Source: Escherichia coli (GTDB taxonomy: Bacteria; Pseudomonadota; Gammaproteobacteria; Enterobacterales; Enterobacteriaceae). Taken from it: 64,000 nt of DNA. Where the stretch lies: the NCBI RefSeq assembly GCF_003334355.1, contig NZ_QOWP01000004.1, one strand, 5' to 3'. The number at the start of each line of letters is the position of its first letter. Within the stretch, counting starts at the first letter, position 1. The notes below the pieces were generated by a model. It had not been told where the DNA came from and did no database searches. It worked only from the letters and a program-made list of their open reading frames with translations. A program made the position numbers and the translations under genes. Positions 1 to 55,603 of this stretch are shown piece by piece.

Positions 1-125
1 TGCAGTTGCCATGTTTTACGGCAGTGAGAGCAGAGATAGCGCTGATGTCCGGCAGTGCTTTTGCCGTTACGCACCACCCCGTCAGTAGCTGAACAGGAGG
101 GACAGCTGATAGAAACAGAAGCCAC
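1..125 (-). CDS. insA: IS1 InsA (N-terminal part, truncated by window edge)
   Basis: GTG start at 125..123; minus-strand translation [41 protein letters not shown] matches InsA. Confidence 0.85.
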
Positions 126-180
126 TGGAGCACCTCAAAAACACCATCATACACTAAATCAGTAAGTTGGCAGCATCACC
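1..180 (-). mobile_element. IS1: IS1 insertion sequence, terminal ~180 bp (inverted repeat plus 5' part of insA); element continues beyond the window start
   Basis: Reverse complement of 1..180 reads GGTGATGCTGCCAACTTACTGAT... followed by the insA start, matching the IS1 left end as remembered; terminal repeat ends at 180. Confidence 0.85.
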
Positions 181-366
181 CGTTTTGTGAATAATGTTCA
201 CAATCCCTGCATTTTAAAATAATTTATAATGATGCAGCCCATAACATTAATCACGTGAATATAAAGATATTCCGTTAATAATTTTAGCTGCGGGTATTTA
301 TATCATAATAAATAAAGCCAATGGCAGAATATCTACCACTGGCTTTGTTTAAGAGTGGAAACCGAA

Positions 367-2313
367 TTAATTAGCAGAATCCGTATTATCTTTTTGGGGC
401 TTTGCCGCTTTTTTCACTCGTTTATTGGGTGCTTTTTTAACTGACTCCCCACCCGGTGCCACAATTCCTCTGAACTGCCTGACCGGAGTGCTACGCGCCT
501 GATCAATCAGTTGGTAAAGCGTCCCCACCAGCGGCTGCATAAAGTCCTGATAGCGACACTGCTTTTCGCTGATTTGCGTCAGCACCGATTCCCAGTGCGC
601 GGTCATGTCCGGTCGCGTAGCCATTTCTGGCAGCGAATGGAATAACGCTTTTCCGGCGTCGGTGGAGTGGATATAGCGCCCTTTTTTGGTGAGGAAACCA
701 CGCTTGAACAACAGTTCAATAATCCCGGCACGCGTTGCTTCTGTCCCCAGACCATCGGTCGCACGAAGGATCTTTTTCAGATCTTTGTCCTGCACAAAGC
801 GCGCGATCCCGGTCATCGCCGAAAGCAGTGTTGCATCGGTAAAATGGCGCGGCGGCTGGGTTTGCCGCTCTACCACTTCACCTTTTTCACACAGCAACTC
901 ATCGCCTTTCGCCACCACAGGCAGTGGCGTGCCGTCGTTTTCTTCATCGCGCTCTTTGCTGCCTAACAGCGTGCGCCAGCCTGCTTCAGCAAGAAAACGC
1001 GCTTTAGCGACAAATTTGCCTTTGGCAATGTCCAGTTCGATAACACACTTGCGGAACACCGCATCCGGGCAGAATTGCATCAGATACTGACGGGCAATCA
1101 GGTTATAGACCTTCGCTTCGTTCTCCGTCAGGTTGATCGCAGAACTCCGTGCGGTCGGAATGATGGCGTGGTGCGCATCGACCTTTTTGTCATCCCAACA
1201 GCGGTTGCGTATATCTGGATCTACCACTGGCTGCGGCAACAGATCCGGTGCATGAACACTGATGGCATTCATCACCGCGTGGCGTCCGGCAAAATGTTCT
1301 TCTGGCAAATAGCGACAATCAGAACGCGGATAAGTGATTAGCTTGTGCGTTTCGTACAGTTTCTGGCAGATATCAAGCACGTTCTGCGCGCTCAGACCAA
1401 AGCGTTTTGCCGCTTCAATCTGCAACGCCGAAAGCGAAAACGGCAGCGGCGCGGATTCTGATTCCCGTTTATCGTTATAGCTGGTGACAATAGCCGGTTG
1501 ACCACTAATGCGGTTAACCACATGCTCCGCCAGTGGACGATGTAACAAGCGCCCTTCTTCATCCTGGTACGGTTCACACGCTTCGCTCGGTTGCCAGATA
1601 GCGGTAAACCGCTCATCGGCAGGTGTCACGATATGCGCTTTGACTTCAAAGAAGTCTTTCGCCACGAAGTTTTCAATCTCTTCATCGCGGCGCACCACCA
1701 GCCCGAGCACGGGTGTCTGCACGCGCCCCACGGAAAGCACGCCCTGATAACCAGCATTGCGACCGAGAATGGTGTAAGCACGGGTCATATTGATGCCGTA
1801 CAGCCAGTCGGCACGCGCTCGCGCCAGCGCAGAAACGCACAGCGGTACAAACTCACTGTTGGAACGAAGACGGTCGATCGCCCGCTCAACCGCCTGCGGG
1901 TTCAGGTCGTTTATCAAGCAACGCTGCACCTGCTGGCGCTTTTCCGGTGCCAGTTGCAGATAGTCCAGCACTTCATCCACCAGCAATTGCCCTTCACGAT
2001 CCGGGTCCCCGGCGTGAACGATTTCGCTGGCTTCATGCAGGAACCGTTTGATGACGTTAAGTTGTTTGGTCACGGAGGGTCGGGGCAGTAATTGCCACTT
2101 TTCCGGGACAATCGGCAAATCCGCAAGATTCCAGCGCGCATAGCGGCTGTCGTAGGCGTCTGGCTGCGCCTGCTCAAGCAGGTGACCGATACACCAGGTC
2201 ACCACCTGACCATTACCGCACTCGATAAAGCCATCGCCTTTCCGGTGCGGTTTGGGCAGGACATCAGCAATGGCGCGCGCCAGACTCGGTTTTTCGGCAA
2301 TAAACAACCGCAT
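367..2313 (-). CDS. topB: DNA topoisomerase III
   Basis: ORF 367..2370; conserved N-terminus [19 protein letters not shown] begins at ATG 2313; [11 protein letters not shown] active-site Tyr region present. Gives 648 aa from this start; reference length not verified. Confidence 0.93.
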
Positions 2314-2317
2314 TGAA

Positions 2318-3361
2318 TTAACGAATCTCAACCATGGCACGACCGCCGCGCGCTGGCACCAGTTCGCCAATTGCCGTCAGTTCAATGCCAAACTCGGCGG
2401 CTGTAGCTTTGACCTCATTTTCTGCTTCCGGCATGACCGCCAGCAGCAAACCGCCAGAAGTTTGCGGATCGCACAGCAGATCGCGCACTTCACGCGGCAT
2501 TTCACCCATCAGATGACCGTAGCTGGCAAAGTTACGTTCAGTGCCGCCAGGTACTGCGCCCAACTTAATGTACTCTTCAACACCGGGGAGTTTCGGGATC
2601 GCTTCATAGTCGACGCGTGCCTGCACACCAGCCCCCTGACACATTTCGCTCAAGTGGCCCAGCAGACCAAAGCCCGTAACGTCGGTCATCGCTTTTACGC
2701 CTTCGATGTTGGCAAAGGACGCGCCTGCGATGTTCATCCGGCACATCACTTCCGTCGCCAGTCCCTGATGTTCTGGTTTCAACAGTGATTTTTTCTCAGC
2801 CGTGGTAAGAACGCCGATCCCCAGCGGTTTCGTCAGGAACAGTTTGCATCCGGCTTGTGCGGTACTGTTTTTCTTCACCCGCTCGGTCGGTACGATCCCC
2901 GTTACCGCCAGACCAAAAATCGGCTCCGGCGCATCGATGGAGTGACCGCCAGCCAGCGCAATACCCGCCTGACGACATGCATAGCGTCCACCTTCGGTCA
3001 CTTCGCGGGCAATTTCCGGGGAAAGTTTGTTAATCGGCCAGCCGAGGATCGCAATCGCCATAATCGGTTTGCCCCCCATCGCGAAGATATCGCTGATGGC
3101 GTTAGTCGCCGCAATGCGGCCAAAATCGAAAGGATTATCAACGATCGGCATAAAGAAGTCGGTGGTACTGATAACGCTGGTGCCATTGCCCAGATCGTAC
3201 ACCGCCGCATCGTCGCGGGTTTCATTACCCACAAGCAAATTCGGATCAACAAACTTCGCCTGCTCACTGTGCAGGATGGTTTCCAACACTTTTGGGGAAA
3301 TTTTACAGCCGCAACCAGCTCCGTGGCTGTATTGGGTCAAACGAATCGAGTTCTCGCTCAT
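2318..3361 (-). CDS. selD: Selenide, water dikinase (selenophosphate synthetase)
   Basis: [24 protein letters not shown]-terminus, 347 aa from second ATG; stop lies 4 nt from the topB start (operon arrangement). Confidence 0.95.
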
Positions 3362-3477
3362 GGACATCTCCTGTCAATGCAATCCGGGTATGGTAACCCT
3401 CATTCCGTGAAGTGATAAGTGAGAGTGTCTGAATTCCTGCGCCTTTGCTCACAATCCAGACAGTTTCGCGACAATTA

Positions 3478-4029
3478 TCAGAAATAAGTTACAAACGGCG
3501 TCGGGTCCGGGACGTTAATCGACGTAGATGCTTTCAGCTGCGGCGTACCGAGGTAGAGAAAACCGACAATTTTATCCTGCTCACGGCAACCGAATGCTTC
3601 ACGCACTACCGGACTTTCAGTTAATGCGCCACTGCGCCAGATGCCGCCAAACCCCTGGGCAACTGCTGCCATTTGCATCGCCATGACCGCGCATCCGGCA
3701 GACATTTCCTGTTCCCAGCGCGGGACTTTATGATTCTCTTCGCATTTCGCCACCACCGTGATGATGAGCGGTGCGCGGAACGGCGCATTACGGGCTTTGT
3801 CGATAGCTTTGTCATCACTACCGGCAGCAATCGCCCCCTGTTCCAGTACGGCGCTGAAACGCTCGCGCCCTTCCCCTTCAATCACAAAAAAATGCCACGG
3901 TTGCATGGACTTATGGTCCGGCGCACGCATACCCGCACGCAGGATGTTTTGCAGTTGTTCACCCGTTGGCGCGGGTTCAGCCAAGCGGGAGGCGCTACGG
4001 CGATTGATCAATAGTTCGAGTGCATCCAT
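3478..4029 (-). CDS. ydjA: Nitroreductase-family protein YdjA
   Basis: 183 aa ORF matching YdjA length and sequence. Confidence 0.92.
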
Positions 4030-4189
4030 TTGATTAACTCCTGTCGTGATATTTATTCACAAAATTAACACGAGAGTGGATTTTGTTACAGCACAGTCCG
4101 CAATTCCTGCTGACAAGTACCGGTTGGGTCATTACGATAACCACATCTATTGCGCCTGTGACAGGTGTGACCTTAAGTTGGGAGAATAC

Positions 4190-6046
4190 ATGCGAACCCT
4201 TTGGCGATTTATTGCCGGATTTTTTAAATGGACGTGGCGTCTGCTGAATTTCGTCCGTGAAATGGTACTTAACCTGTTCTTTATTTTCCTCGTACTGGTT
4301 GGTGTGGGGATTTGGATGCAGGTCAGTGGTGGTGATTCGAAAGAAACGGCCAGTCGTGGCGCACTGCTGCTGGACATTTCTGGTGTGATCGTCGATAAAC
4401 CCGACAGTTCTCAGCGGTTTAGTAAATTAAGCCGCCAGCTGCTTGGTGCCAGTTCCGATCGTCTGCAGGAAAACTCACTGTTTGATATCGTCAACACTAT
4501 TCGCCAGGCGAAGGACGACCGCAATATCACCGGTATTGTGATGGATCTGAAAAACTTCGCAGGCGGCGACCAACCGTCTATGCAGTACATCGGCAAAGCT
4601 CTGAAAGAGTTTCGTGACAGCGGGAAACCGGTTTATGCCGTTGGCGAGAACTACAGCCAGGGGCAATATTATCTCGCCAGTTTCGCCAATAAAATTTGGC
4701 TGTCTCCGCAAGGCGTGGTTGATCTGCACGGCTTTGCCACCAACGGTCTGTACTACAAATCGTTGCTGGATAAGCTGAAAGTTTCCACCCATGTGTTCCG
4801 CGTGGGTACGTATAAATCTGCCGTTGAACCGTTTATTCGTGATGATATGTCACCGGCAGCCCGCGAAGCTGACAGCCGCTGGATTGGTGAGCTGTGGCAA
4901 AACTATCTGAATACTGTTGCCGCTAACCGGCAGATCCCTGCTGAGCAGGTATTCCCTGGCGCGCAAGGGTTGCTTGAGGGTTTAACCAAAACCGGTGGCG
5001 ATACCGCGAAATATGCACTGGAAAACAAGCTGGTCGATGCACTGGCATCGAGTGCGGAAATCGAAAAAGCACTGACCAAAGAATTCGGCTGGAGTAAGAC
5101 TGATAAAAATTATCGCGCCATCAGTTATTACGATTACGCATTGAAAACGCCGGCAGATACCGGTGACAGCATCGGTGTCGTCTTTGCTAATGGCGCAATT
5201 ATGGATGGCGAGGAAACTCAGGGGAATGTTGGCGGTGATACCACTGCGGCACAAATCCGCGACGCTCGCCTTGACCCGAAAGTGAAAGCGATTGTCCTGC
5301 GTGTTAATAGCCCAGGCGGCAGCGTTACCGCGTCTGAAGTGATTCGCGCTGAACTGGCAGCAGCCCGGGCAGCGGGTAAGCCTGTGGTTGTATCGATGGG
5401 CGGCATGGCGGCATCTGGTGGTTACTGGATTTCCACGCCAGCTAATTACATTGTGGCTAACCCCAGCACCCTGACCGGTTCTATCGGTATCTTCGGCGTG
5501 ATCACCACCGTAGAAAATAGTCTGGATTCGATTGGTGTTCATACCGATGGTGTCTCAACTTCACCGCTGGCAGATGTTTCTATCACCAGGGCACTGCCGC
5601 CGGAAGCACAGCAGATGATGCAGTTAAGCATTGAGAATGGCTATAAACGCTTTATCACGCTGGTTGCTGATGCGCGTCATTCGACGCCGGAGCAGATTGA
5701 TAAAATCGCCCAGGGCCACGTCTGGACCGGTCAGGATGCAAAAGCTAACGGGCTGGTCGATAGCCTCGGGGATTTCGATGATGCAGTTGCCAAAGCAGCA
5801 GAGCTGGCAAAAGTGAAACAGTGGCATCTGGAATACTACGTTGATGAACCGACCTTCTTCGACAAAGTGATGGACAACATGTCTGGTTCTGTCCGGGCAA
5901 TGTTGCCAGATGCGTTCCAGGCCATGTTACCTGCACCGCTGGCCTCGGTAGCCTCTACTGTTAAAAGTGAAAGCGACAAGCTGGCCGCGTTTAACGACCC
6001 ACAAAACCGTTATGCGTTTTGCCTGACCTGCGCCAACGTGCGTTAA
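4190..6046 (+). CDS. sppA: Signal peptide peptidase A (protease IV)
   Basis: ORF 4046..6046; ATG at 4190 preceded by GGAG gives the 618 aa SppA beginning [14 protein letters not shown]. Confidence 0.93.
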
Positions 6047-6212
6047 GTCTTGTACTGAGTGGCCGACAGATCGTCGGCCACATTATTTTTTACGTCGACG
6101 AATCCTCTTCCCGCTGTCTCGCCCCATATTTCCTTATCCGCATAGTATCAGGTGCGCTCCTCCTGCCTCACGTATATACTTTTGCTCTTTCGATATCATT
6201 CATATCAATATC

Positions 6213-7229
6213 ATGCAAAAGAAATCAATTTACGTCGCCTACACGGGCGGGACCATCGGGATGCAGCGTTCCGAGCAGGGTTATATTCCGGTGTCAGGTC
6301 ATCTACAACGCCAACTGGCGCTGATGCCGGAATTCCATCGCCCGGAGATGCCAGATTTCACCATTCATGAATATATGCCGCTGATGGATTCTTCTGATAT
6401 GACGCCAGAAGACTGGCAGCATATTGCTGAAGATATTAAAGCGCACTATGACGACTATGATGGTTTTGTCATTCTGCACGGCACCGACACGATGGCGTAT
6501 ACCGCCTCTGCGCTGTCGTTCATGCTCGAAAATCTCGGTAAACCGGTCATTGTGACAGGGTCACAAATCCCGCTGGCTGAGTTACGCTCTGACGGACAAA
6601 TTAATCTGCTGAATGCGTTGTACGTTGCGGCGAATTATCCGATCAACGAAGTAACGCTCTTTTTTAATAATCGACTGTATCGCGGCAACCGCACCACCAA
6701 AGCCCATGCCGATGGTTTTGATGCGTTTGCCTCTCCAAACCTTCCTCCGTTACTGGAAGCAGGTATCCATATACGTCGTTTGAATACGCCACCCGCCCCG
6801 CACGGTGAAGGGGAATTGATCGTTCATCCAATCACGCCACAACCAATTGGCGTAGTGACGATTTATCCGGGGATTTCTGCTGACGTCGTGCGCAATTTTC
6901 TGCGCCAACCGGTGAAAGCATTGATTCTGCGCTCATATGGCGTGGGTAATGCGCCACAAAACAAAGCCTTCCTGCAGGAATTACAAGAAGCCAGCGATCG
7001 CGGTATTGTGGTGGTCAACCTGACACAATGTATGTCCGGTAAAGTGAACATGGGTGGTTATGCCACCGGTAACGCCCTCGCCCATGCCGGCGTTATTGGC
7101 GGTGCAGATATGACTGTAGAAGCCACGCTAACCAAACTGCATTACCTGCTGAGCCAGGAACTGGATACTGAAACCATTCGCAAGGCCATGAGCCAAAACC
7201 TGCGCGGCGAACTGACGCCGGATGATTAA
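6213..7229 (+). CDS. ansA: Cytoplasmic L-asparaginase I
   Basis: 338 aa; TGGTIGM threonine motif near the N-terminus. Confidence 0.95.
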   Translation: MQKKSIYVAYTGGTIGMQRSEQGYIPVSGHLQRQLALMPEFHRPEMPDFTIHEYMPLMDSSDMTPEDWQHIAEDIKAHYDDYDGFVILHGTDTMAYTASALSFMLENLGKPVIVTGSQIPLAELRSDGQINLLNALYVAANYPINEVTLFFNNRLYRGNRTTKAHADGFDAFASPNLPPLLEAGIHIRRLNTPPAPHGEGELIVHPITPQPIGVVTIYPGISADVVRNFLRQPVKALILRSYGVGNAPQNKAFLQELQEASDRGIVVVNLTQCMSGKVNMGGYATGNALAHAGVIGGADMTVEATLTKLHYLLSQELDTETIRKAMSQNLRGELTPDD

Positions 7230-7239
7230 GGAGACTGCA

Positions 7240-7881
7240 ATGCCCCCTCGCGCCCTGTTACTGGTCGATTTACAAAATGATTTCTGTGCTGGTGGCGCGC
7301 TCGCCGTGCCGGAAGGTGACAGTACGGTGGATGTCGCTAACCGCCTGATTGACTGGTGCCAGTCGCGCGGTGAAGCGGTTATCGCCAGTCAGGACTGGCA
7401 CCCGGCGAATCACGGCAGTTTTGCCAGTCAGCACGGTGTCGAGCCTTATACGCCAGGCCAACTCGACGGTTTGCCACAAACCTTCTGGCCAGATCACTGT
7501 GTGCAGAACAGTGAAGGCGCACAATTACATCCGTTACTGAACCAAAAAGCGATCGCAGCGGTGTTCCATAAAGGCGAAAATCCTTTAGTTGACAGTTACA
7601 GTGCCTTTTTTGATAACGGCCGTCGGCAGAAAACCTCGCTCGATGACTGGTTGCGCGATCATGAAATCGATGAATTGATCGTTATGGGCCTGGCTACTGA
7701 CTATTGCGTGAAGTTTACCGTGCTGGACGCGTTACAGTTAGGTTATAAGGTGAACGTGATTACCGATGGTTGTCGTGGCGTGAATATCCAGCCCCAGGAC
7801 AGTGCGCACGCGTTTATGGAGATGTCAGCAGCTGGGGCAACGCTATATACGCTGGCAGACTGGGAAGAGACGCAGGGGTAA
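7240..7881 (+). CDS. pncA: Nicotinamidase / pyrazinamidase
   Basis: ORF 7222..7881; ATG 7240 gives 213 aa MPPRALLLVDLQNDFC; isochorismatase-fold motifs including catalytic Cys (TDYCV). Confidence 0.93.
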   Translation: MPPRALLLVDLQNDFCAGGALAVPEGDSTVDVANRLIDWCQSRGEAVIASQDWHPANHGSFASQHGVEPYTPGQLDGLPQTFWPDHCVQNSEGAQLHPLLNQKAIAAVFHKGENPLVDSYSAFFDNGRRQKTSLDDWLRDHEIDELIVMGLATDYCVKFTVLDALQLGYKVNVITDGCRGVNIQPQDSAHAFMEMSAAGATLYTLADWEETQG

Positions 7882-7890
7882 TTTTACGCT

Positions 7891-7921
7891 GGCCTACAAT
7901 TCTGTACTGGCATTGTAGGCC
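7891..7921. terminator. Inverted repeat between convergent pncA and ydjE (possible bidirectional terminator)
   Basis: ggcctacaat ... attgtaggcc 10-bp inverted repeat followed by A/T-rich tract. Confidence 0.5.
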
Positions 7922-7973
7922 AAATAAAACACGTCAGTGGTACATCTGGCAATTGATGCCATCAACGAAAGAT

Positions 7974-9332
7974 TTAATTCACCTCAGAAATCTCTTCCAA
8001 CGACACCTTCCGCGTTTCGATGCCAAAAATGGAGAGAACCAGCGCACAGAGCAATAACATGACACCAAGCACCATAAACACCGTGATCGACCCATAATGT
8101 GTTAATAATGCCGCAACGCCATAGGGCGTGAAAACTGCGACGACCCGTCCGACGGCATTAACGAAACCCGAACCGCGCAGGCGTAAATGCGTTGGCCAAA
8201 GCTCCGGGATATAAACCGCCGACGCGAAGCAAACATACATGTATAAAAAGAAGATCATCACCAGACCATAGATTAAAATCGCCCACTCTGTAGTCTGAAT
8301 TGAATAGATATAGCCTAACACGGCAATAATAATAAGTAAGGCGGAGCCAAATAATCGACGAGGAAAATGATCAATAATTAATGCCGCAATAAATATTCCT
8401 ACCGGAGCGCCAATCATAATAACAGCGGTCATTAATATTGATTTATCGACATCAATGCCGGAGTTAACAAATATGGTCGGTATCCATACGGTGATGGTAT
8501 AAAGCGAAATGTTCATTGCAATTAAAACAGTAATCGCGACTAATGTACGTCGTAACATTTCCCCTTTAAACAGGAGCCAGAAGGTACCCTTGATTACCTT
8601 AACCTTGCTGTTGCTCTGGTTCAAAGTAAGCTGGGGTAAACGAATACTCTTCTCTCTTTCAATTTGCTGCTCTACTTCACGAAGTTGGCTTTCTGCACCG
8701 GCGATTTGCCCTTTCCCTGCCAGCCATCGTGGCGACTCAATAAAGTATTTACCTGAGAGAAGCCAGGCTAACAGTATGCCAATACCCCCCAACAGAAACA
8801 TTATCCGCCAACTAAAAAAAGCGATAACCACCACGCCTATCGCCGCAGATAGCATGGGCGACCAGTTACCAACAAATGAGAGCCGCGCGGACCATTTTCC
8901 ACGCACCGTCGCGGGGATAAACTCCGTAAATGAGGCATAGCCAACCATAATCAGCGCCCCCATTCCTGTTCCCATGAGGAAGCGAAAGAAAATGAGCCAG
9001 TACATATCAGGGACAAAAGCGGCCCCTGTTGCAGCAATTCCGACGATGAGAAGATTTATGCGAAACGCCCTGCGCCGCCCAAAGTAGTCACCAATAAACC
9101 CACCAGTAAGTGAGCCGATGAAATAACCAAACATTAATGCCGAGGTAAAGGCGGCATTGAGGAAATTATTTGACCATCCATTGCTTACCAGCTTTGCTAA
9201 GACGACATTACCTGAGTAACTCAAAAACCCCGTTAATAACAGACTAAAGCTTATTATACCAAATATACGATAATGAAACCGGGCCAAAGGCAAGCGGTCC
9301 AGTCTTGCGCCAATTTGATCATATTGTTCCAT
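7974..9332 (-). CDS. ydjE: MFS-family transporter YdjE
   Basis: ORF 7974..9437 (TTG-initiated in the track); internal ATG at 9332 gives 452 aa MEQYDQIGARLDRL; multiple predicted TM segments. Confidence 0.9.
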   Translation of the reverse strand: MEQYDQIGARLDRLPLARFHYRIFGIISFSLLLTGFLSYSGNVVLAKLVSNGWSNNFLNAAFTSALMFGYFIGSLTGGFIGDYFGRRRAFRINLLIVGIAATGAAFVPDMYWLIFFRFLMGTGMGALIMVGYASFTEFIPATVRGKWSARLSFVGNWSPMLSAAIGVVVIAFFSWRIMFLLGGIGILLAWLLSGKYFIESPRWLAGKGQIAGAESQLREVEQQIEREKSIRLPQLTLNQSNSKVKVIKGTFWLLFKGEMLRRTLVAITVLIAMNISLYTITVWIPTIFVNSGIDVDKSILMTAVIMIGAPVGIFIAALIIDHFPRRLFGSALLIIIAVLGYIYSIQTTEWAILIYGLVMIFFLYMYVCFASAVYIPELWPTHLRLRGSGFVNAVGRVVAVFTPYGVAALLTHYGSITVFMVLGVMLLLCALVLSIFGIETRKVSLEEISEVN

Positions 9333-9449
9333 TGGGTGCCTCGGATTTGCTAAAAAAGGTAGCAATTGCGGCAAATTCACTTGCCGCATCTTTATCATCA
9401 TTTTATTTCCAGGCGCAGGAACAAATAATATTGACAACGTGTGCTTAAA

Positions 9450-10208
9450 TTACCACACCAGCTGGATATTATTGTCTTTGCAAAATGCTATCCACTCTGC
9501 ACCCGGTGATTTATCAGTTATTATGTAATTAATATGACTAAAGTCAGCTAACTGGACAAAAGCTTTACGATCAAACTTAGAGTGATCAACCAATAACACA
9601 ACTTCTGTCGCCTGACGGATCATTGTCTTTTTGATTTCAGCTTCCGCTTCATTAGAGTCCAGCGCGCCGCTGTTAATATCAAGACCTTTACAACTCATTA
9701 CCATGATATCGACATGGTAGCGGCTGATGATCTCTTTAGTAATTCTTCCTTGCAGGGAAAGTGTATTTTTGTTTAGTTCCCCACCCGTTGAAACGACTTT
9801 AATTTCTGACTGAGCCAGAACATGAATCGCTTCCGCCGAGTTGGTTAGCAACGTCAGGTCACTACGGTCCTGTAACAATTTGAGCAATTCCATTACGGTA
9901 CTACTGGAATCGGCTGCCATGGTGGTTTTATTGTCGATAAAGGGTAGTGCCTTGCGTGCAATAAGCTGCTTCTCTTCATAAAACGATGAAGCGCGCTTAT
10001 AAAAATGGATATTCTCCGTCAACATCGCTGTATTTAAAACAGCACCACCATAGGTTCTGGTCAAAAAGCCTTCATCTTCCAGCTTCTCAAGATCGCGGCG
10101 AATGGTTTCTTCGGTTACCTGAAAAATCCCACTCAAATTTGAGACTGTCACCTTTTTATCGTTGGCAACCATTTGCTTAATTGCCTGAATCCTGTCTTTT
10201 GCCGCCAC
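9450..10208 (-). CDS. ydjF: DeoR-family transcriptional regulator YdjF
   Basis: 252 aa; N-terminal helix-turn-helix and C-terminal sugar-phosphate sensor typical of DeoR regulators. Confidence 0.92.
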   Translation of the reverse strand: MAAKDRIQAIKQMVANDKKVTVSNLSGIFQVTEETIRRDLEKLEDEGFLTRTYGGAVLNTAMLTENIHFYKRASSFYEEKQLIARKALPFIDNKTTMAADSSSTVMELLKLLQDRSDLTLLTNSAEAIHVLAQSEIKVVSTGGELNKNTLSLQGRITKEIISRYHVDIMVMSCKGLDINSGALDSNEAEAEIKKTMIRQATEVVLLVDHSKFDRKAFVQLADFSHINYIITDKSPGAEWIAFCKDNNIQLVW

Positions 10209-22261: not shown

Positions 22262-24196
22262 ATGAATATATTCGATCACTATCGCCAGCGATATGAAGCT
22301 GCCAAGGACGAAGAGTTCACACTGCAGGAGTTTCTTACCACTTGTCGGCAAGATCGCAGTGCTTATGCCAACGCGGCTGAGCGGCTATTGATGGCTATCG
22401 GTGAGCCTGTCATGGTCGATACAGCCCAGGAACCCAGACTTTCTCGACTCTTTTCTAACCGGGTCATTGCACGTTATCCGGCGTTTGAAGAGTTTTACGG
22501 CATGGAAGACGCGATTGAACAGATTGTCTCTTATCTGAAACACGCGGCTCAGGGGCTGGAAGAGAAGAAACAAATCCTGTATCTGCTGGGGCCTGTGGGT
22601 GGGGGTAAATCATCGCTTGCTGAGCGACTGAAATCATTAATGCAGCTCGTACCGATTTATGTATTGAGCGCGAACGGTGAGCGTAGCCCGGTCAACGATC
22701 ATCCGTTCTGTCTTTTCAATCCGCAGGAAGATGCGCAGATTCTGGAAAAAGAGTATGGCATTCCTCGCCGTTATCTCGGCACCATCATGTCGCCGTGGGC
22801 GGCAAAACGCCTGCATGAATTTGGTGGCGATATCACTAAGTTCCGGGTAGTGAAGGTCTGGCCGTCAATTCTGCAACAAATTGCTATCGCCAAAACGGAA
22901 CCCGGCGATGAGAACAACCAGGACATCTCCGCGCTGGTTGGGAAAGTCGATATTCGTAAACTCGAACACTACGCGCAGAATGACCCGGACGCCTACGGCT
23001 ATTCCGGTGCGCTGTGCCGCGCCAATCAGGGGATCATGGAATTCGTTGAGATGTTTAAAGCACCGATTAAAGTGCTGCATCCCTTGTTAACCGCCACTCA
23101 GGAAGGTAACTACAACGGGACGGAAGGTATCTCCGCCCTGCCGTTCAACGGGATTATTCTCGCACACTCGAACGAGTCCGAATGGGTCACTTTCCGTAAT
23201 AACAAAAACAACGAAGCCTTCCTCGATCGTGTTTACATCGTGAAGGTGCCGTATTGCTTGCGCATTTCCGAAGAGATCAAAATCTACGAGAAATTGCTTA
23301 ATCACAGTGAATTGACTCACGCCCCATGCGCCCCTGGCACGCTCGAAACACTGTCACGTTTTTCCATTCTTTCGCGCCTGAAAGAGCCAGAAAACTCCAG
23401 CATTTATTCAAAGATGCGGGTTTATGATGGCGAAAGTCTGAAAGACACCGATCCCAAAGCCAAGTCGTATCAGGAATATCGTGACTACGCCGGTGTCGAT
23501 GAAGGGATGAACGGTCTGTCGACGCGTTTTGCGTTTAAGATCCTCTCCCGCGTGTTCAACTTCGATCATGTAGAAGTGGCAGCAAACCCGGTCCATCTGT
23601 TCTACGTCCTGGAACAGCAGATTGAGCGCGAGCAGTTCCCACAAGAGCAGGCAGAACGCTATCTGGAGTTCCTGAAAGGTTATCTGATCCCGAAATATGC
23701 CGAGTTTATCGGCAAAGAGATCCAGACGGCCTACCTTGAATCCTATTCCGAATATGGGCAAAACATTTTCGACCGTTATGTTACCTACGCGGATTTCTGG
23801 ATTCAGGATCAGGAGTATCGCGATCCGGATACCGGGCAGCTGTTTGACCGCGAGTCTCTTAACGCCGAGCTGGAGAAAATCGAGAAACCGGCGGGGATCA
23901 GTAATCCAAAAGATTTCCGCAACGAGATTGTTAACTTCGTACTGCGCGCCAGAGCGAATAACAGCGGACGCAATCCGAACTGGACCAGCTATGAAAAACT
24001 GCGCACGGTCATCGAGAAGAAAATGTTCTCCAATACCGAGGAGCTGTTGCCGGTTATCTCGTTTAACGCCAAAACGTCAACCGACGAGCAGAAGAAACAC
24101 GACGACTTTGTCGACCGTATGATGGAAAAAGGCTACACCCGTAAACAGGTGCGTTTACTGTGCGAATGGTATTTGCGCGTACGTAAATCGTCTTAA
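22262..24196 (+). CDS. yeaG: PrkA-family serine protein kinase YeaG
   Basis: 644 aa; Walker A GPVGGGKSS. Confidence 0.93.
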   Translation: MNIFDHYRQRYEAAKDEEFTLQEFLTTCRQDRSAYANAAERLLMAIGEPVMVDTAQEPRLSRLFSNRVIARYPAFEEFYGMEDAIEQIVSYLKHAAQGLEEKKQILYLLGPVGGGKSSLAERLKSLMQLVPIYVLSANGERSPVNDHPFCLFNPQEDAQILEKEYGIPRRYLGTIMSPWAAKRLHEFGGDITKFRVVKVWPSILQQIAIAKTEPGDENNQDISALVGKVDIRKLEHYAQNDPDAYGYSGALCRANQGIMEFVEMFKAPIKVLHPLLTATQEGNYNGTEGISALPFNGIILAHSNESEWVTFRNNKNNEAFLDRVYIVKVPYCLRISEEIKIYEKLLNHSELTHAPCAPGTLETLSRFSILSRLKEPENSSIYSKMRVYDGESLKDTDPKAKSYQEYRDYAGVDEGMNGLSTRFAFKILSRVFNFDHVEVAANPVHLFYVLEQQIEREQFPQEQAERYLEFLKGYLIPKYAEFIGKEIQTAYLESYSEYGQNIFDRYVTYADFWIQDQEYRDPDTGQLFDRESLNAELEKIEKPAGISNPKDFRNEIVNFVLRARANNSGRNPNWTSYEKLRTVIEKKMFSNTEELLPVISFNAKTSTDEQKKHDDFVDRMMEKGYTRKQVRLLCEWYLRVRKSS

Positions 24197-24296: not shown

Positions 24297-25592
<1,296 letters not shown>

Positions 25593-25738
25593 AACTATCA
25601 GCCAGGTCATTATCGCCTGGCTGATTTTTAGCTTACTGTAAATTATCTCATTTATTACATACATTAGCTTACAATCGCTTTAAATATGACAGCATAACCT
25701 TTACATAATTTAGTTCCAGAAAACAATCATTCGGAAAA

Positions 25739-27214
25739 ATGATTCAGTCAACACGTATTTCCATGGGGTTATTCTTTAAATATTTTTTATCGTTAACGAA
25801 AATTGATCTTGGTCAAAACTATATATCTCTGCCATCAATAAAATCCAGCACTCACATTGCTCTCCTTTTTATGGTTTCTATGGGTACACAAAAATTAAAA
25901 GCTCAAAGCTTTTTTATTTTCAGTTTATTGCTGACGTTAATTTTATTTTGCATTACTACCTTATATAACGAAAACACAAATGTAAAACTCATCCCACAGA
26001 TGAATTACCTGATGGTTGTTGTGGCTTTGTTTTTCCTTAACGCCGTCATTTTTCTTTTCATGTTAATGAAATATTTCACTAACAAACAAATTTTACCAAC
26101 ACTCATTTTAAGCCTTGCATTTTTAAGTGGCCTTATCTATTTAGTTGAAACCATTGTAATTATCCATAAACCAATTAACGGCAGTACACTGATCCAGACA
26201 AAGTCGAATGATGTTTCTATTTTCTATATTTTCCGCCAACTCAGTTTTATTTGTTTAACCTCGCTGGCACTCTTTTGTTATGGAAAAGACAACATCCTTG
26301 ACAACAATAAGAAAAAAACGGGAATCCTGTTGCTGGCGCTGATTCCTTTTTTAGTTTTTCCCCTTCTGGCACACAATCTGAGCAGTTATAACGCTGACTA
26401 TTCTTTGTATGTCGTCGACTACTGTCCTGACAACCATACTGCGACCTGGGGAATCAACTATACAAAAATATTGGTTTGTCTGTGGGCATTTTTACTGTTC
26501 TTTATTATCATGCGTACACGATTAGCCAGCGAACTATGGCCATTAATAGCATTATTATGTCTGGCATCGCTATGCTGCAACTTACTTCTACTGACTCTGG
26601 ATGAGTATAATTACACCATCTGGTACATCAGTCGCGGGATTGAAGTCTCCAGTAAACTGTTTGTTGTGTCTTTTCTGATTTATAACATTTTTCAGGAACT
26701 GCAACTCTCCAGCAAACTGGCAGTTCATGATGTGCTGACCAATATTTATAATCGGCGCTACTTTTTCAACAGCGTAGAGTCATTATTGTCGCGACCTGTT
26801 GTTAAGGACTTCTGTGTCATGCTGGTTGATATTAATCAGTTCAAACGCATCAATGCCCAATGGGGACATCGTGTGGGTGATAAAGTGCTGGTTTCAATTG
26901 TCGATATTATCCAGCAAAGCATCCGCCCCGATGATATTTTAGCGCGACTGGAGGGTGAGGTGTTTGGCTTGCTATTTACCGAACTCAATAGTGCCCAGGC
27001 AAAAATCATTGCGGAACGTATGCGTAAAAATGTCGAACTCCTGACCGGCTTTAGTAACAGATATGATGTTCCTGAACAAATGACCATCAGTATTGGCACG
27101 GTTTTTTCAACGGGTGACACGCGTAATATCTCGCTTGTCATGACGGAAGCAGATAAAGCCTTACGCGAAGCGAAAAGCGAGGGGGGCAACAAAGTGATTA
27201 TTCATCATATTTAA
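25739..27214 (+). CDS. dgcI: GGDEF-domain membrane protein with degenerate active-site motif (EGEVF)
   Basis: 491 aa; N-terminal multi-TM domain; C-terminal GGDEF fold with DVLTNIYNRRYF but RLEGEVFGLLF in place of GGDEF. Confidence 0.9.
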   Translation: MIQSTRISMGLFFKYFLSLTKIDLGQNYISLPSIKSSTHIALLFMVSMGTQKLKAQSFFIFSLLLTLILFCITTLYNENTNVKLIPQMNYLMVVVALFFLNAVIFLFMLMKYFTNKQILPTLILSLAFLSGLIYLVETIVIIHKPINGSTLIQTKSNDVSIFYIFRQLSFICLTSLALFCYGKDNILDNNKKKTGILLLALIPFLVFPLLAHNLSSYNADYSLYVVDYCPDNHTATWGINYTKILVCLWAFLLFFIIMRTRLASELWPLIALLCLASLCCNLLLLTLDEYNYTIWYISRGIEVSSKLFVVSFLIYNIFQELQLSSKLAVHDVLTNIYNRRYFFNSVESLLSRPVVKDFCVMLVDINQFKRINAQWGHRVGDKVLVSIVDIIQQSIRPDDILARLEGEVFGLLFTELNSAQAKIIAERMRKNVELLTGFSNRYDVPEQMTISIGTVFSTGDTRNISLVMTEADKALREAKSEGGNKVIIHHI

Positions 27215-27394: not shown

Positions 27395-28885
27395 ATGAAA
27401 TTGCACCATAGAATGCTCCGGCATTTTATCGCCGCAAGTGTCATTGTGCTGACATCTTCCTTCCTTATTTTTGAACTTGTCGCCAGCGACAGAGCAATGA
27501 GTGCCTATCTGCGCTATATCGTGCAGAAAGCAGACTCCTCCTTTCTTTATGATAAGTATCAGAATCAGAGTATTGCCGCGCATGTGATGCGCGCTCTCGC
27601 TGCTGAGCAGTCGGAAGTGTCGCCAGAACAGCGGCGCGCCATCTGCGAGGCTTTTGAGTCTGCCAATAATACCCATGGCTTAAACCTGACTGCCCATAAA
27701 TAACCGGGCTTACGCGGCACACTACAAACCGCATCCACTGACTGCGACACAATTGTGGAAGCTGCAGCACTATTACCCGCTTTTGATCAGGCAGTGGAAG
27801 GCAACCGCCACCAGGATGATTACGGTTCAGGTCTTGGGATGGCCGAAGAGAAATTTCACTATTATCTCGATCTCAATGACCGCTATGTCTATTTTTATGA
27901 GCCGGTTAATGTTGAATACTTTGCGATGAATAACTGGTCCTTCCTGCAGTCAGGAAGTATTGGCATCGATCGCAAAGATATTGAAAAGGTATTTACCGGG
28001 CGTACCGTATTGTCGAGCATTTACCAGGATCAGCGTACTAAACAGAACGTGATGAGTTTGCTGACGCCGGTATATGTCGCAGGGCAGCTAAAAGGGATTG
28101 TGCTGCTGGATATTAACAAAAACAATTTGCGGAATATCTTTTACACTCATGACCGCCCTCTCCTCTGGCGTTTTCTCAATGTCACGCTAACCGATACCGA
28201 TTCGGGGCGCGACATTATCATCAACCAGAGCGAAGATAATCTGTTCCAGTATGTCAGTTACGTCCATGACTTACCGGGCGGCATTCGTGTCTCGTTATCC
28301 ATTGATATTCTTTACTTTATCACGTCTTCGTGGAAAAGCGTTCTGTTCTGGATTTTGACGGCGTTAATTTTGCTGAATATGGTGCGGATGCACTTCCGTT
28401 TATACCAAAATGTGTCGCGAGAAAATATTAGTGATGCGATGACTGGACTGTATAATCGCAAAATTTTAACCCCTGAACTGGAGCAGCGGTTGCAGAAACT
28501 GGTGCAAGCCGGTTCTTCGGTGATGTTTATTGCAATTGACATGGACAAGTTAAAGCAAATAAATGACACCCTCGGTCATCAGGAGGGGGATTTAGCGATT
28601 ACGTTATTAGCTCAGGCGATTAAACAATCGATTCGTAAAAGTGATTATGCCATCCGACTCGGTGGCGATGAATTCTGCATCATTCTTGTCGATTCGACGC
28701 CGCAAATTGCAGCACAACTGCCTGAACGTATCGAAAAACGTCTGCAACATATCGCGCCGCAGAAAGAGATTGGCTTCTCTTCCGGTATTTACGCGATGAA
28801 AGAAAACGATACGTTACATGATGCGTATAAAGCTTCCGATGAGCGTTTATATGTCAATAAGCAGAACAAAAACAGCCGTTCATGA
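27395..28885 (+). pseudogene. dgcJ: Diguanylate cyclase yeaJ/dgcJ interrupted by an in-frame TAA at 27701..27703
   Basis: ORFs 27215..27703 and 27755..28885 share one frame separated only by the TAA; ATG 27395 (RBS aaggag) to 28885 is 497 codons, matching the 496 aa K-12 protein with one stop; intact GGDEF (RLGGDEF) lies downstream. Confidence 0.8.
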
Positions 28886-32886: not shown

Positions 32887-33068
32887 TTATTGATCTCACA
32901 TATTTATCCAAGATTAGAGTATCGCGGTATCGTTTTGTTTTGCAGCACTATTTTTATTACATTCACTCAAAACATATTACGTCTTGTTTCATCTTTGTTG
33001 ATGATGTTTTATCATGCCTGCAAAGATTAAATAATCAGCATTTACCCGCCGTATCCTGGAGTTGTTCC

Positions 33069-34093
33069 GTGTCAGATCAGATTATCGCCCGCGTCTCGCA
33101 ATCCCTTGCCAAAGAACAGTCACTGGAAAGTCTGGTCCGACAGCTTCTGGAGATGCTGGAAATGGTCACTGATATGGAATCAACCTACCTGACCAAAGTG
33201 GATGTCGAAGCGCGCCTGCAGCATATTATGTTTGCCCGTAACAGCCAGAAAATGCACATCCCGGAGAATTTTACCGTCTCGTGGGATTACTCGTTATGCA
33301 AACGCGCCATTGATGAAAACTGCTTTTTCAGCGATGAAGTCCCCGACCGTTGGGGTGACTGTATTGCGGCACGCAATCTTGGCATCACCACATTTCTGAG
33401 CACGCCAATTCACTTACCGGATGGATCATTCTATGGCACGCTTTGCGCCGCCAGCAGTGAGAAGCGCCAGTGGAGTGAACGCGCGGAACAGGTTTTACAG
33501 TTATTCGCCGGACTGATTGCACAATATATTCAAAAAGAGGCACTGGTTGAACAGCTGCGCGAAGCCAATGCTGCGCTGATTGCGCAATCGTATACCGACT
33601 CGTTAACCGGCTACCGAATCGGCGGGCGATTTTTGAAAATCTGACGACACTGTTTTCCCTCGCCCGGCATCTTAACCATAAGATAATGATCGCGTTTATC
33701 GATCTGGATAACTTCAAATTAATCAATGATCGTTTTGGTCATAATAGTGGCGATCTGTTTCTCATTCAGGTTGGCGAGCGCCTTAATACGCTCCAGCAAA
33801 ATGGCGAAGTTATTGGTCGTCTCGGCGGTGATGAGTTTTTAGTTGTTTCACTAAACAACGAGAATGCGGATATTTCGTCGCTGCGAGAACGCATTCAGCA
33901 GCAAATACGTGGAGAATATCACTTAGGTGATGTTGATTTGTATTATCCCGGTGCCAGTCTTGGCATAGTAGAAGTCGATCCTGAAACAACCGATGCAGAC
34001 AGTGCCCTGCATGCTGCCGATATTGCGATGTATCAGGAGAAAAAACACAAACAGAAAACACCTTTTGTCGCGCATCCAGCGCTACATTCCTGA
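33069..34093 (+). pseudogene. dgcP: GAF-GGDEF diguanylate cyclase yeaP/dgcP disrupted by a 1-nt deletion (-1 frameshift) near 33611..33613
   Basis: ORF 32940..33644 (GAF part, GTG start 33069) and ORF 33686..34093 (GGDEF part with RLGGDEF) are in different frames; adding one nt to ggctaccg (giving ggcTTAccg) restores SLTGLPNRRAIFENL and a 341 aa product. Confidence 0.8.
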
Positions 34094-34125
34094 GGCGTAT
34101 TCACATCCTTTTGATTGGTGATAAC

Positions 34126-54004: not shown

Positions 54005-55603
54005 ATGCAAAAAGCACAACGGATCATTAAAACCTATCGCCGTAATCGAATGATTGTTTGTACGATTTGCGCACTCGTTACGCTCGCTTCGACCCTGAGC
54101 GTGCGATTTATTTCACAGCGTAACTTAAATCAACAACGGGTAGTACAATTCGCCAATCACGCTGTAGAGGAATTAGATAAAGTACTGCTTCCCCTACAGG
54201 CAGGTAGCGAAGTCTTGCTTCCGCTGATTGGTCTGCCCTGCTCTGTCGCCCATTTGCCATTACGTAAACAGGCGGCAAAACTCCAAACTGTGCGATCCAT
54301 TGGCCTGGTGCAAGACGGCACACTTTATTGCTCCAGCATTTTTGGTTATCGCAATGTGCCCGTCGTGGACATTCTGGCTGAACTTCCTGCACCGCAACCA
54401 CTTTTACGCCTGACGATCGACCGTGCCCTGATTAAAGGCAGTCCGGTTTTGATTCAATGGACGCCTGCAGCGGGCAGTAGCAATGCTGGGGTCATGGAGA
54501 TGATTAACATCGACTTACTGACGGCAATGCTCCTTGAGCCACAACTGCCGCAAATCAGTAGCGCCAGCCTGACGGTGGACAAACGGCATTTGCTCTATGG
54601 TAATGGGCTGGTAGATTCCCTTCCGCAACCTGAAGACAATGAAAACTATCAGGTTTCTTCGCAACGCTTTCCTTTTACCATTAACGTTAATGGTCCGGGG
54701 GCTACGGCGCTGGCATGGCACTATCTTCCAACACAATTACCGCTGGCGGTGCTGCTAAGTTTACTGGTGGGCTACATCGCCTGGCTGGCGACCGCTTACC
54801 GGATGAGCTTTTCCCGCGAAATCAATCTGGGCCTAGCGCAACATGAGTTCGAATTGTTCTGTCAGCCTTTGCTTAATGCGCGCAGCCAGCAATGTATTGG
54901 TGTAGAGATTTTGCTGCGCTGGAACAATCCGCGTCAGGGCTGGATTTCACCGGATGTGTTTATTCCTATCGCGGAAGAACATCATTTAATTGTGCCACTG
55001 ACCCGCTATGTGATGGCAGAAACCATTCGTCAGCGCCATGTTTTCCCGATGAGTAGTCAGTTTCATGTTGGCATTAACGTCGCACCCAGCCATTTTCGCC
55101 GTGGTGTGCTGATAAAAGATCTCAATCAGTACTGGTTTAGCGCTCACCCGATTCAGCAACTGATCCTCGAAATCACCGAACGCGATGCCTTACTGGATGT
55201 TGATTATCGGATTGCCCGCGAGCTACATCGTAAAAACGTCAAACTGGCGATTGATGACTTCGGCACCGGCAACAGTTCATTTTCCTGGCTTGAAACATTA
55301 CGTCCTGACGTGCTGAAAATTGATAAGTCATTTACCGCAGCTATAGGTTCTGACGCGGTTAACTCGACGGTGACCGATATCATCATCGCGCTGGGGCAAA
55401 GACTGAATATTGAACTGGTGGCGGAGGGCGTGGAAACGCAAGAACAGGCGAAGTATTTGCGCCGTCATGGCGTGCATATTTTGCAAGGGTATTTGTACGC
55501 ACAGCCGATGCCGCTACGTGATTTTCCCAAATGGCTGGCGGGCAGCCAACCGCCGCCCGCCCGGCATAATGGACATATCACGCCCATTATGCCGTTACGT
55601 TAA
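54005..55603 (+). CDS. pdeD: EAL-domain c-di-GMP phosphodiesterase with N-terminal membrane/periplasmic sensor
   Basis: ORF 53975..55603; ATG 54005 gives 532 aa; EAL-type motif region CQPLLN...GVEILLRW. Confidence 0.9.
   Translation: MQKAQRIIKTYRRNRMIVCTICALVTLASTLSVRFISQRNLNQQRVVQFANHAVEELDKVLLPLQAGSEVLLPLIGLPCSVAHLPLRKQAAKLQTVRSIGLVQDGTLYCSSIFGYRNVPVVDILAELPAPQPLLRLTIDRALIKGSPVLIQWTPAAGSSNAGVMEMINIDLLTAMLLEPQLPQISSASLTVDKRHLLYGNGLVDSLPQPEDNENYQVSSQRFPFTINVNGPGATALAWHYLPTQLPLAVLLSLLVGYIAWLATAYRMSFSREINLGLAQHEFELFCQPLLNARSQQCIGVEILLRWNNPRQGWISPDVFIPIAEEHHLIVPLTRYVMAETIRQRHVFPMSSQFHVGINVAPSHFRRGVLIKDLNQYWFSAHPIQQLILEITERDALLDVDYRIARELHRKNVKLAIDDFGTGNSSFSWLETLRPDVLKIDKSFTAAIGSDAVNSTVTDIIIALGQRLNIELVAEGVETQEQAKYLRRHGVHILQGYLYAQPMPLRDFPKWLAGSQPPPARHNGHITPIMPLR

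Follow-up and report, generated by a model that had tools for sequence, protein, structure and literature searches.

In a stretch of 64,000 nucleotides of an Escherichia coli contig (hereafter the window), the gene for the diguanylate cyclase DgcP is split between two open reading frames, which raises the question of whether the enzyme has genuinely been lost, whether some part of it may still be active, or whether the split merely reflects an error in the assembly. A preliminary description had assigned the locus to dgcP (yeaP), and the assignment holds. Aligned with K-12 MG1655 b1794 (1026 nt, 341 aa), the window gene shows one SNP and a one-nucleotide deletion over 1026 nt, such that 1024 of the 1026 nucleotides are common to both, and near-identity extends along the full length of the gene. 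The gene order yeaO-yoaF-dgcP-yoaK-yoaJ-yeaQ is also kept in K-12, in HS, and in the relatives of the window. As judged by identity and synteny, the locus is the orthologue of dgcP. In a collection search, 5,408 complete E. coli genomes had an annotated dgcP matching the region at 99.9-100% identity, so that the split is no chance pattern. Two of the approximately 5,420 dgcP matches lie on records labelled plasmid, not chromosome.

The two reading frames run as they were first reported, which both the list of open reading frames and the translation confirm (Table 1). The first one (32940..33644), ending in YTDSLTGYRIGGRFLKI and a stop codon, includes the GTG that RefSeq annotates as the start of dgcP, at 33069. 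This start is preceded by a GGAG that probably serves as a working ribosome-binding site, and the 5' fragment should still be translated. Its native part comprises the GAF domain (17-155), the linker, and the first seven residues of the GGDEF domain. The product of the second one reads MIAFIDLDNFK...RLGGDEF...HPALHS.

Table 1. Features of the dgcP locus and its downstream neighbours, in window positions
Feature	Position	Strand	Remarks
GGAG, Shine-Dalgarno-like	33058..33061	+	7 nt 5' of the GTG start; read from the sequence
dgcP (yeaP, b1794 orthologue), pseudogene	33069..34093	+	1025 nt; intact gene 1026 nt
5' fragment ORF	33069..33644	+	191 codons: 181 native residues plus out-of-frame tail YRIGGRFLKI; translation
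Lesion	33609..33610	+	GG remains of ancestral GGG (gene nt 541-543, codon 181, Gly of DSLTG-LPNRR)
Premature TGA stop, shifted frame	33642..33644	+	translation
3' fragment ORF	33686..34093	+	135 aa, DgcP Met207-Ser341, other frame; ORF list
yoaK	34126..34224		
yoaJ	34227..34301		

Concerning the lesion itself, when the window is aligned to the undamaged dgcP of E. coli HS and to two other genomes carrying the split gene (AR_0369 and PSS-12), a single gap falls in ACC-GGG-CTA, the window reading ACC-GG-CTA. Whichever of the three G's is removed from the HS gene, the window gene results exactly, with zero other differences, and since the rest of dgcP is unchanged relative to the HS allele, the deletion event is recent. 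A single indel relative to the intact orthologues is thus what brings the premature stop into frame. The preliminary description had correctly recognised a single-nucleotide deletion that shifts the frame inside the DSLTGLPNRR motif, as borne out by alignment with intact alleles, and had predicted that its repair would give a product of 341 aa, the length of K-12 DgcP. The alignment with MG1655 b1794 that it proposed as a check was run: one base put back at the site does yield a 341-aa product, whose sole difference from K-12 DgcP is H63Y. It was mistaken about the base, which it took to be a T in a TT dinucleotide, whereas the ancestral sequence is ACC GGG CTA CCG and it is a G of the G3 run that was lost. 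The T insertion that it suggested (GGC TTA CCG) gives the right amino acids with the wrong nucleotide, the true ancestral reading being GGG CTA CCG.

The position of the break relative to the domains also has to be revised, as it had been thought to separate GAF from GGDEF. In the intact protein, Pfam places GGDEF (PF00990) at 175-330 (model positions 2-160), downstream of GAF, and solved GGDEF domains align from DgcP residues ~175-177 on. The lesion, at codon 181, falls about seven residues inside GGDEF, and it is consequently the catalytic domain itself that is broken. No single frame holds a complete GGDEF domain: reading is thrown out of frame at codon 181, and all that the 3' ORF retains is model positions 35-160 of 161, the first 34 being missing. 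The active-site motif GG[D/E]EF is present, as RLGGDEF, only in the detached 3' ORF, while of the N-terminal DxLTGLxNRR segment only DSLTG remains encoded, followed by YRIGGRFLKI and a stop. Moreover, no ATG, GTG or TTG occurs in the frame of the 3' ORF between the preceding stop and 33686, and no clear Shine-Dalgarno sequence lies 5' of Met207 (upstream sequence CATAAGATA).

The most probable course of events is that one G was lost from GGG at codon 181 and that the resulting allele was passed on by descent. Translation from the GTG start would leave the native frame after ...DSLTG, add ten wrong residues and terminate at 33642-33644, and the 5' product would be a GAF-domain stub without catalytic domain. 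The remainder of GGDEF, being in another frame, would be translatable only from Met207, and such a product would lack the beginning of the catalytic domain and, with it, the asparagine of LPNRR that is predicted to contact the GTP base. On the basis of GGDEF alignments, this residue, DgcP Asn184, is presumably the nucleobase-contacting asparagine. A GGDEF crystal structure shows a hydrogen bond to the nucleobase from the asparagine that precedes the specificity residue by nine positions (Asn339 and Ser348 in GacA; PMC6456294). Neither fragment would be expected to form an active site, which would leave the strain and its clade without the contribution of DgcP to c-di-GMP synthesis. Given a break about seven residues into GGDEF, and a 3' ORF that covers 35-160 only and has no good ribosome-binding site, we infer from the sequence that loss of cyclase activity is the best reading.

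The distribution of the allele bears directly on whether the missing base is real. A 71-nt probe centred on the site has a 100% match in 7 of 5,418 complete E. coli genomes (AR_0369, MLI023K1, MLI023K2, OW1E2, E41, PSS-12, and PRO_A-1412-6M-A_ESBL), and the remaining 5,411 all show at least one gap or mismatch to it. These carriers were deposited by different submitters and include isolates from human faeces in Ecuador, from Swiss river water (an isolate published in 2014), from other human sources and from a pig; OW1E2 is a CTX-M-55 river isolate, and AR_0369, an AR_-numbered isolate, comes with no source on record. The PGAP label 'dgcP, frameshifted' is found on the same interval in the three carrier records that were inspected for it (AR_0369, PSS-12 and OW1E2), the other four (MLI023K1, MLI023K2, E41, PRO_A-1412-6M-A_ESBL) being counted by allele only. 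When genomes are ranked by their match to 24 kb of flanking sequence, the first six places are taken by six of the seven carriers; AR_0369 stands lower solely on account of a deletion at yeaV and of greater divergence in the segment downstream of it. In the 7.15 kb surrounding dgcP, 2-4 SNPs separate the window from each of the carriers that were compared (AR_0369, PSS-12 and OW1E2), against 23 for HS and 38 for NH-21, the nearest genomes with an intact allele. On the evidence of these comparisons, one origin followed by inheritance accounts for the distribution of the allele and base-calling error does not, and the strain of the window is the eighth member of a dgcP-frameshift clade.

A sequencing error had initially been left open, that is, a strain that truly has GGG and one G dropped in base-calling or polishing. 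The site is indeed a short homopolymer (G3), the window sequence was assessed without reads, and a systematic error common to related assemblies is formally possible. However, the lesion is reproduced identically in independent assemblies, the seven other complete genomes coming from several laboratories and all sharing nearly the same haplotype background as the window, while at this position no base has dropped out in the 5,411 others. A run of three bases is, besides, not a typical site of homopolymer error. Comparison with PSS-12 across the 64 kb gives 19 substitutions and 0 indels, which indicates that the assembly of the window is not indel-prone. We consequently regard an artefact as very unlikely indeed. 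The preliminary description had held that the same split gene in other strains would count against its proposal; such strains exist, and they dispose of the artefact reading while confirming the frameshift itself.

Comparison of the window with its relatives also revealed several differences in the flanking sequences. Positions 1-180 of the window lie inside an IS1 element (99.4% identity to the IS1 copy of NH-21), an IS1A transposase gene lies at the equivalent site of PSS-12, adjoining topB, and window positions 1-10000 are found at 100% in one piece in PSS-12 only. PSS-12 carries an IS5 between yeaH and cdgI (23045-24025 of the compared segment), and OW1E2 an IS421 that splits yeaR (25192-26529 of the compared segment). 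AR_0369 is devoid of ~224-225 bp at the dmlA-yeaV junction and the start of yeaV (window 38505-38728), with yeaV annotated as partial, and past this deletion, up to window position 54375, its identity to the window goes from 99.95% to 99.48%, which suggests that the segment downstream of the deletion has been recombined. Finally, two RNA elements match Rfam models at gathering threshold, the sRNA SroD between rnd and fadD (43595-43680, minus strand) and a cspA-type thermoregulator 5' UTR upstream of a cold-shock-family gene near yobF (62729-63189, minus strand), both expected for this chromosomal region.

If the deletion is real, the cyclase might nonetheless survive in part, with ribosomes reinitiating at Met207, 41 nt beyond the premature stop, and translating the 3' ORF into a stand-alone, Shigella-like enzyme. 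The RLGGDEF motif is kept in this ORF, and pseudogenes of diguanylate cyclases (DGCs) in S. flexneri still raise c-di-GMP via internal starts, so that a 'pseudogene' is not automatically null (PMC11327459). In the window, however, the break lies inside the GGDEF domain and not ahead of it, and even the longest 3' product would be without model positions 1-34, including DxLTGLxNRR with its base-contacting asparagine. The lack of an in-frame start upstream of Met207 and of a clear Shine-Dalgarno sequence also speaks against such a product, as does the absence of the GAF domain and linker: GGDEF enzymes normally dimerise via their N-terminal domains and catalysis needs the dimer, so that the usual aid to dimerisation would be missing. 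An active 3' fragment of Shigella type appears to be ruled out by the domain mapping, and we consider residual cyclase activity very improbable. Full-length DgcP might alternatively be restored by programmed recoding, either a -1 ribosomal frameshift or transcriptional slippage, in favour of which there is nothing more than the existence of two overlapping frames. The stretch from the lesion to the premature stop contains no slippery heptamer of the form X XXY YYZ, and a slip downstream of the lesion would still leave wrong residues in place of LPNRR. Slippage is not favoured by a G run of two bases, and the two-frame arrangement is not conserved, being found in 7 of 5,418 genomes while the other 5,411 encode DgcP in one frame. 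In the absence of a slippery heptamer, recoding was rejected, and we give it a practically negligible likelihood.

The 5' fragment deserves separate consideration, as the GAF-only stub of 181 native residues could have a function of its own, for instance as a ligand buffer or a dominant-negative partner. Its promoter region, Shine-Dalgarno sequence, start codon, full GAF domain and linker are intact, and the clade that carries it is geographically widespread; the stub may be made and could retain ligand-binding or interaction functions, a point against a complete null. On the other side, there is no sign of selection on the allele, which is rare (7 of 5,418 genomes) and, in the carriers compared, sits on near-identical haplotypes only. 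An aberrant tail of ten residues and the loss of a partner domain would often destabilise such fragments, and dgcP has been destroyed in other ways in other strains (by IS1, as in 2017.17.01CC), which fits plain dispensability. A function proper to the stub seems to us improbable. A genuine, recent and clonally inherited loss-of-function allele of dgcP is, with high probability, the best explanation of what the alignments and domain mapping reveal at this locus.

The window contains a second interrupted diguanylate cyclase gene, dgcJ (27395..28885, plus strand), located 6 kb from dgcP. Its codon 103 has changed from TAC (Tyr) to TAA (27701-27703) by a C to A substitution at 27703, and the next in-frame start, a GTG at 27755, would give a 376-aa product without the N-terminal membrane segment. 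A search of 5,405 complete E. coli genomes, the other carriers of the dgcP frameshift among them, did not find the Tyr103 stop in any, and it is either private to the strain of the window or a substitution error. Of the 19 differences from PSS-12, approximately 8-11 occur in the window alone; the dgcJ stop is the only disruptive one among these, and the set gives no indication of a mutator or of noise in the assembly. Two other genes, cdgI and pdeD, appear intact in the window. The mutated dgcJ site (27701-27710) and the intact form of the dgcP lesion site share the 10-mer TAACCGGGCT, which could have pointed to a shared mutational context. With up to one mismatch, this 10-mer has 4 occurrences against 3.08 expected, and 38 of 100 shuffles reach 4; with a count at chance level and flanks that cannot be aligned, we attribute the resemblance to coincidence. 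Either a lineage that sheds cyclases stepwise under selection for low c-di-GMP (dgcP in the ancestor, dgcJ privately) or a regulatory GAF stub would give the dgcP lesion a wider meaning, and we view this as unlikely; two lesions noticed post hoc in one strain lend the stepwise loss weak support.

As for the cellular consequences, YeaP is among the cyclases with verified activity in a study of strain CFT073, where a yeaP deletion mutant forms less biofilm in minimal medium with glycerol, a defect that a heterologous cyclase complements (PMC3484386). DgcP belongs to those DGCs that K-12 expresses more strongly throughout growth (PMC5635695), and the S. flexneri DgcP raises c-di-GMP slowly (PMC11327459). 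Based on these published activities, expression data and deletion effects, the phenotype to be expected from loss of dgcP would be a modest, condition-dependent reduction in c-di-GMP-dependent traits. Concerning the downstream genes, a pattern scan found no terminator-like site on the plus strand between dgcP and yoaK, and a weak promoter-like site at 34100-34127; with roughly 480 nt of mRNA left untranslated from the premature stop to yoaK, polarity of the dgcP lesion on yoaK and yoaJ is possible but unproven.

The allele is already known, in that public RefSeq records label it as a frameshifted pseudogene. We found no published discussion of it in the literature covered, to which the Povolotsky & Hengge comparative survey of E. 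coli GGDEF/EAL genes did not belong. Frameshift loss of single GGDEF/EAL genes is familiar in E. coli and Shigella lineages (PMC11327459), and the present case is of modest importance and raises no new mechanistic question. It nevertheless provides a clean marker of an E. coli clade that is small and widely distributed and counts ESBL-producing isolates among its members. Strains of this clade are predicted to be without one of the diguanylate cyclases that are more strongly expressed. The allele also adds one more natural knock-out to the variation of the E. coli c-di-GMP network, and represents a case where the annotation 'frameshifted' reflects biology and not assembly error.

When set against known systems, the locus corresponds to that of K-12 DgcP (YeaP, b1794), a GAF-GGDEF diguanylate cyclase that lies in the same synteny (yoaF-dgcP-yoaK-yoaJ-yeaQ). 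It differs from it by the absence of one G at nt 541-543, by which GGDEF is no longer encodable in frame. The identical one-G deletion is shared with AR_0369, PSS-12, OW1E2, MLI023K1, MLI023K2, E41 and PRO_A-1412-6M-A_ESBL. None of the genomes searched matches the window exactly; the closest record is PSS-12, at the 19 substitutions per 64 kb given above, and the window is distinguished from its relatives by having neither the IS5 of PSS-12 nor the IS421 of OW1E2, and by its private dgcJ stop codon. The IS1-disrupted dgcP alleles (2017.17.01CC, NZ_OY757949.1, Z503) are 99.9% identical to the window outside the insertion and represent independent knock-outs, in which an insertion sequence lies within the GGDEF-coding part, whereas the window has a point deletion. 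In the 2017.17.01CC record, the IS1 insertion occupies 1165-1923 of the compared segment. The degenerate dgcE, dgcQ and dgcN of Shigella resemble the dgcP of the window as GGDEF genes of the E. coli/Shigella species complex that carry inactivating point lesions of natural origin. In these DGC pseudogenes of S. flexneri, the stop lies ahead of an intact GGDEF domain and internal starts give rise to active products (PMC11327459), while in the dgcP of the window the cut falls behind the seventh residue of GGDEF, and translation could first restart at Met207, 32 residues into the domain.
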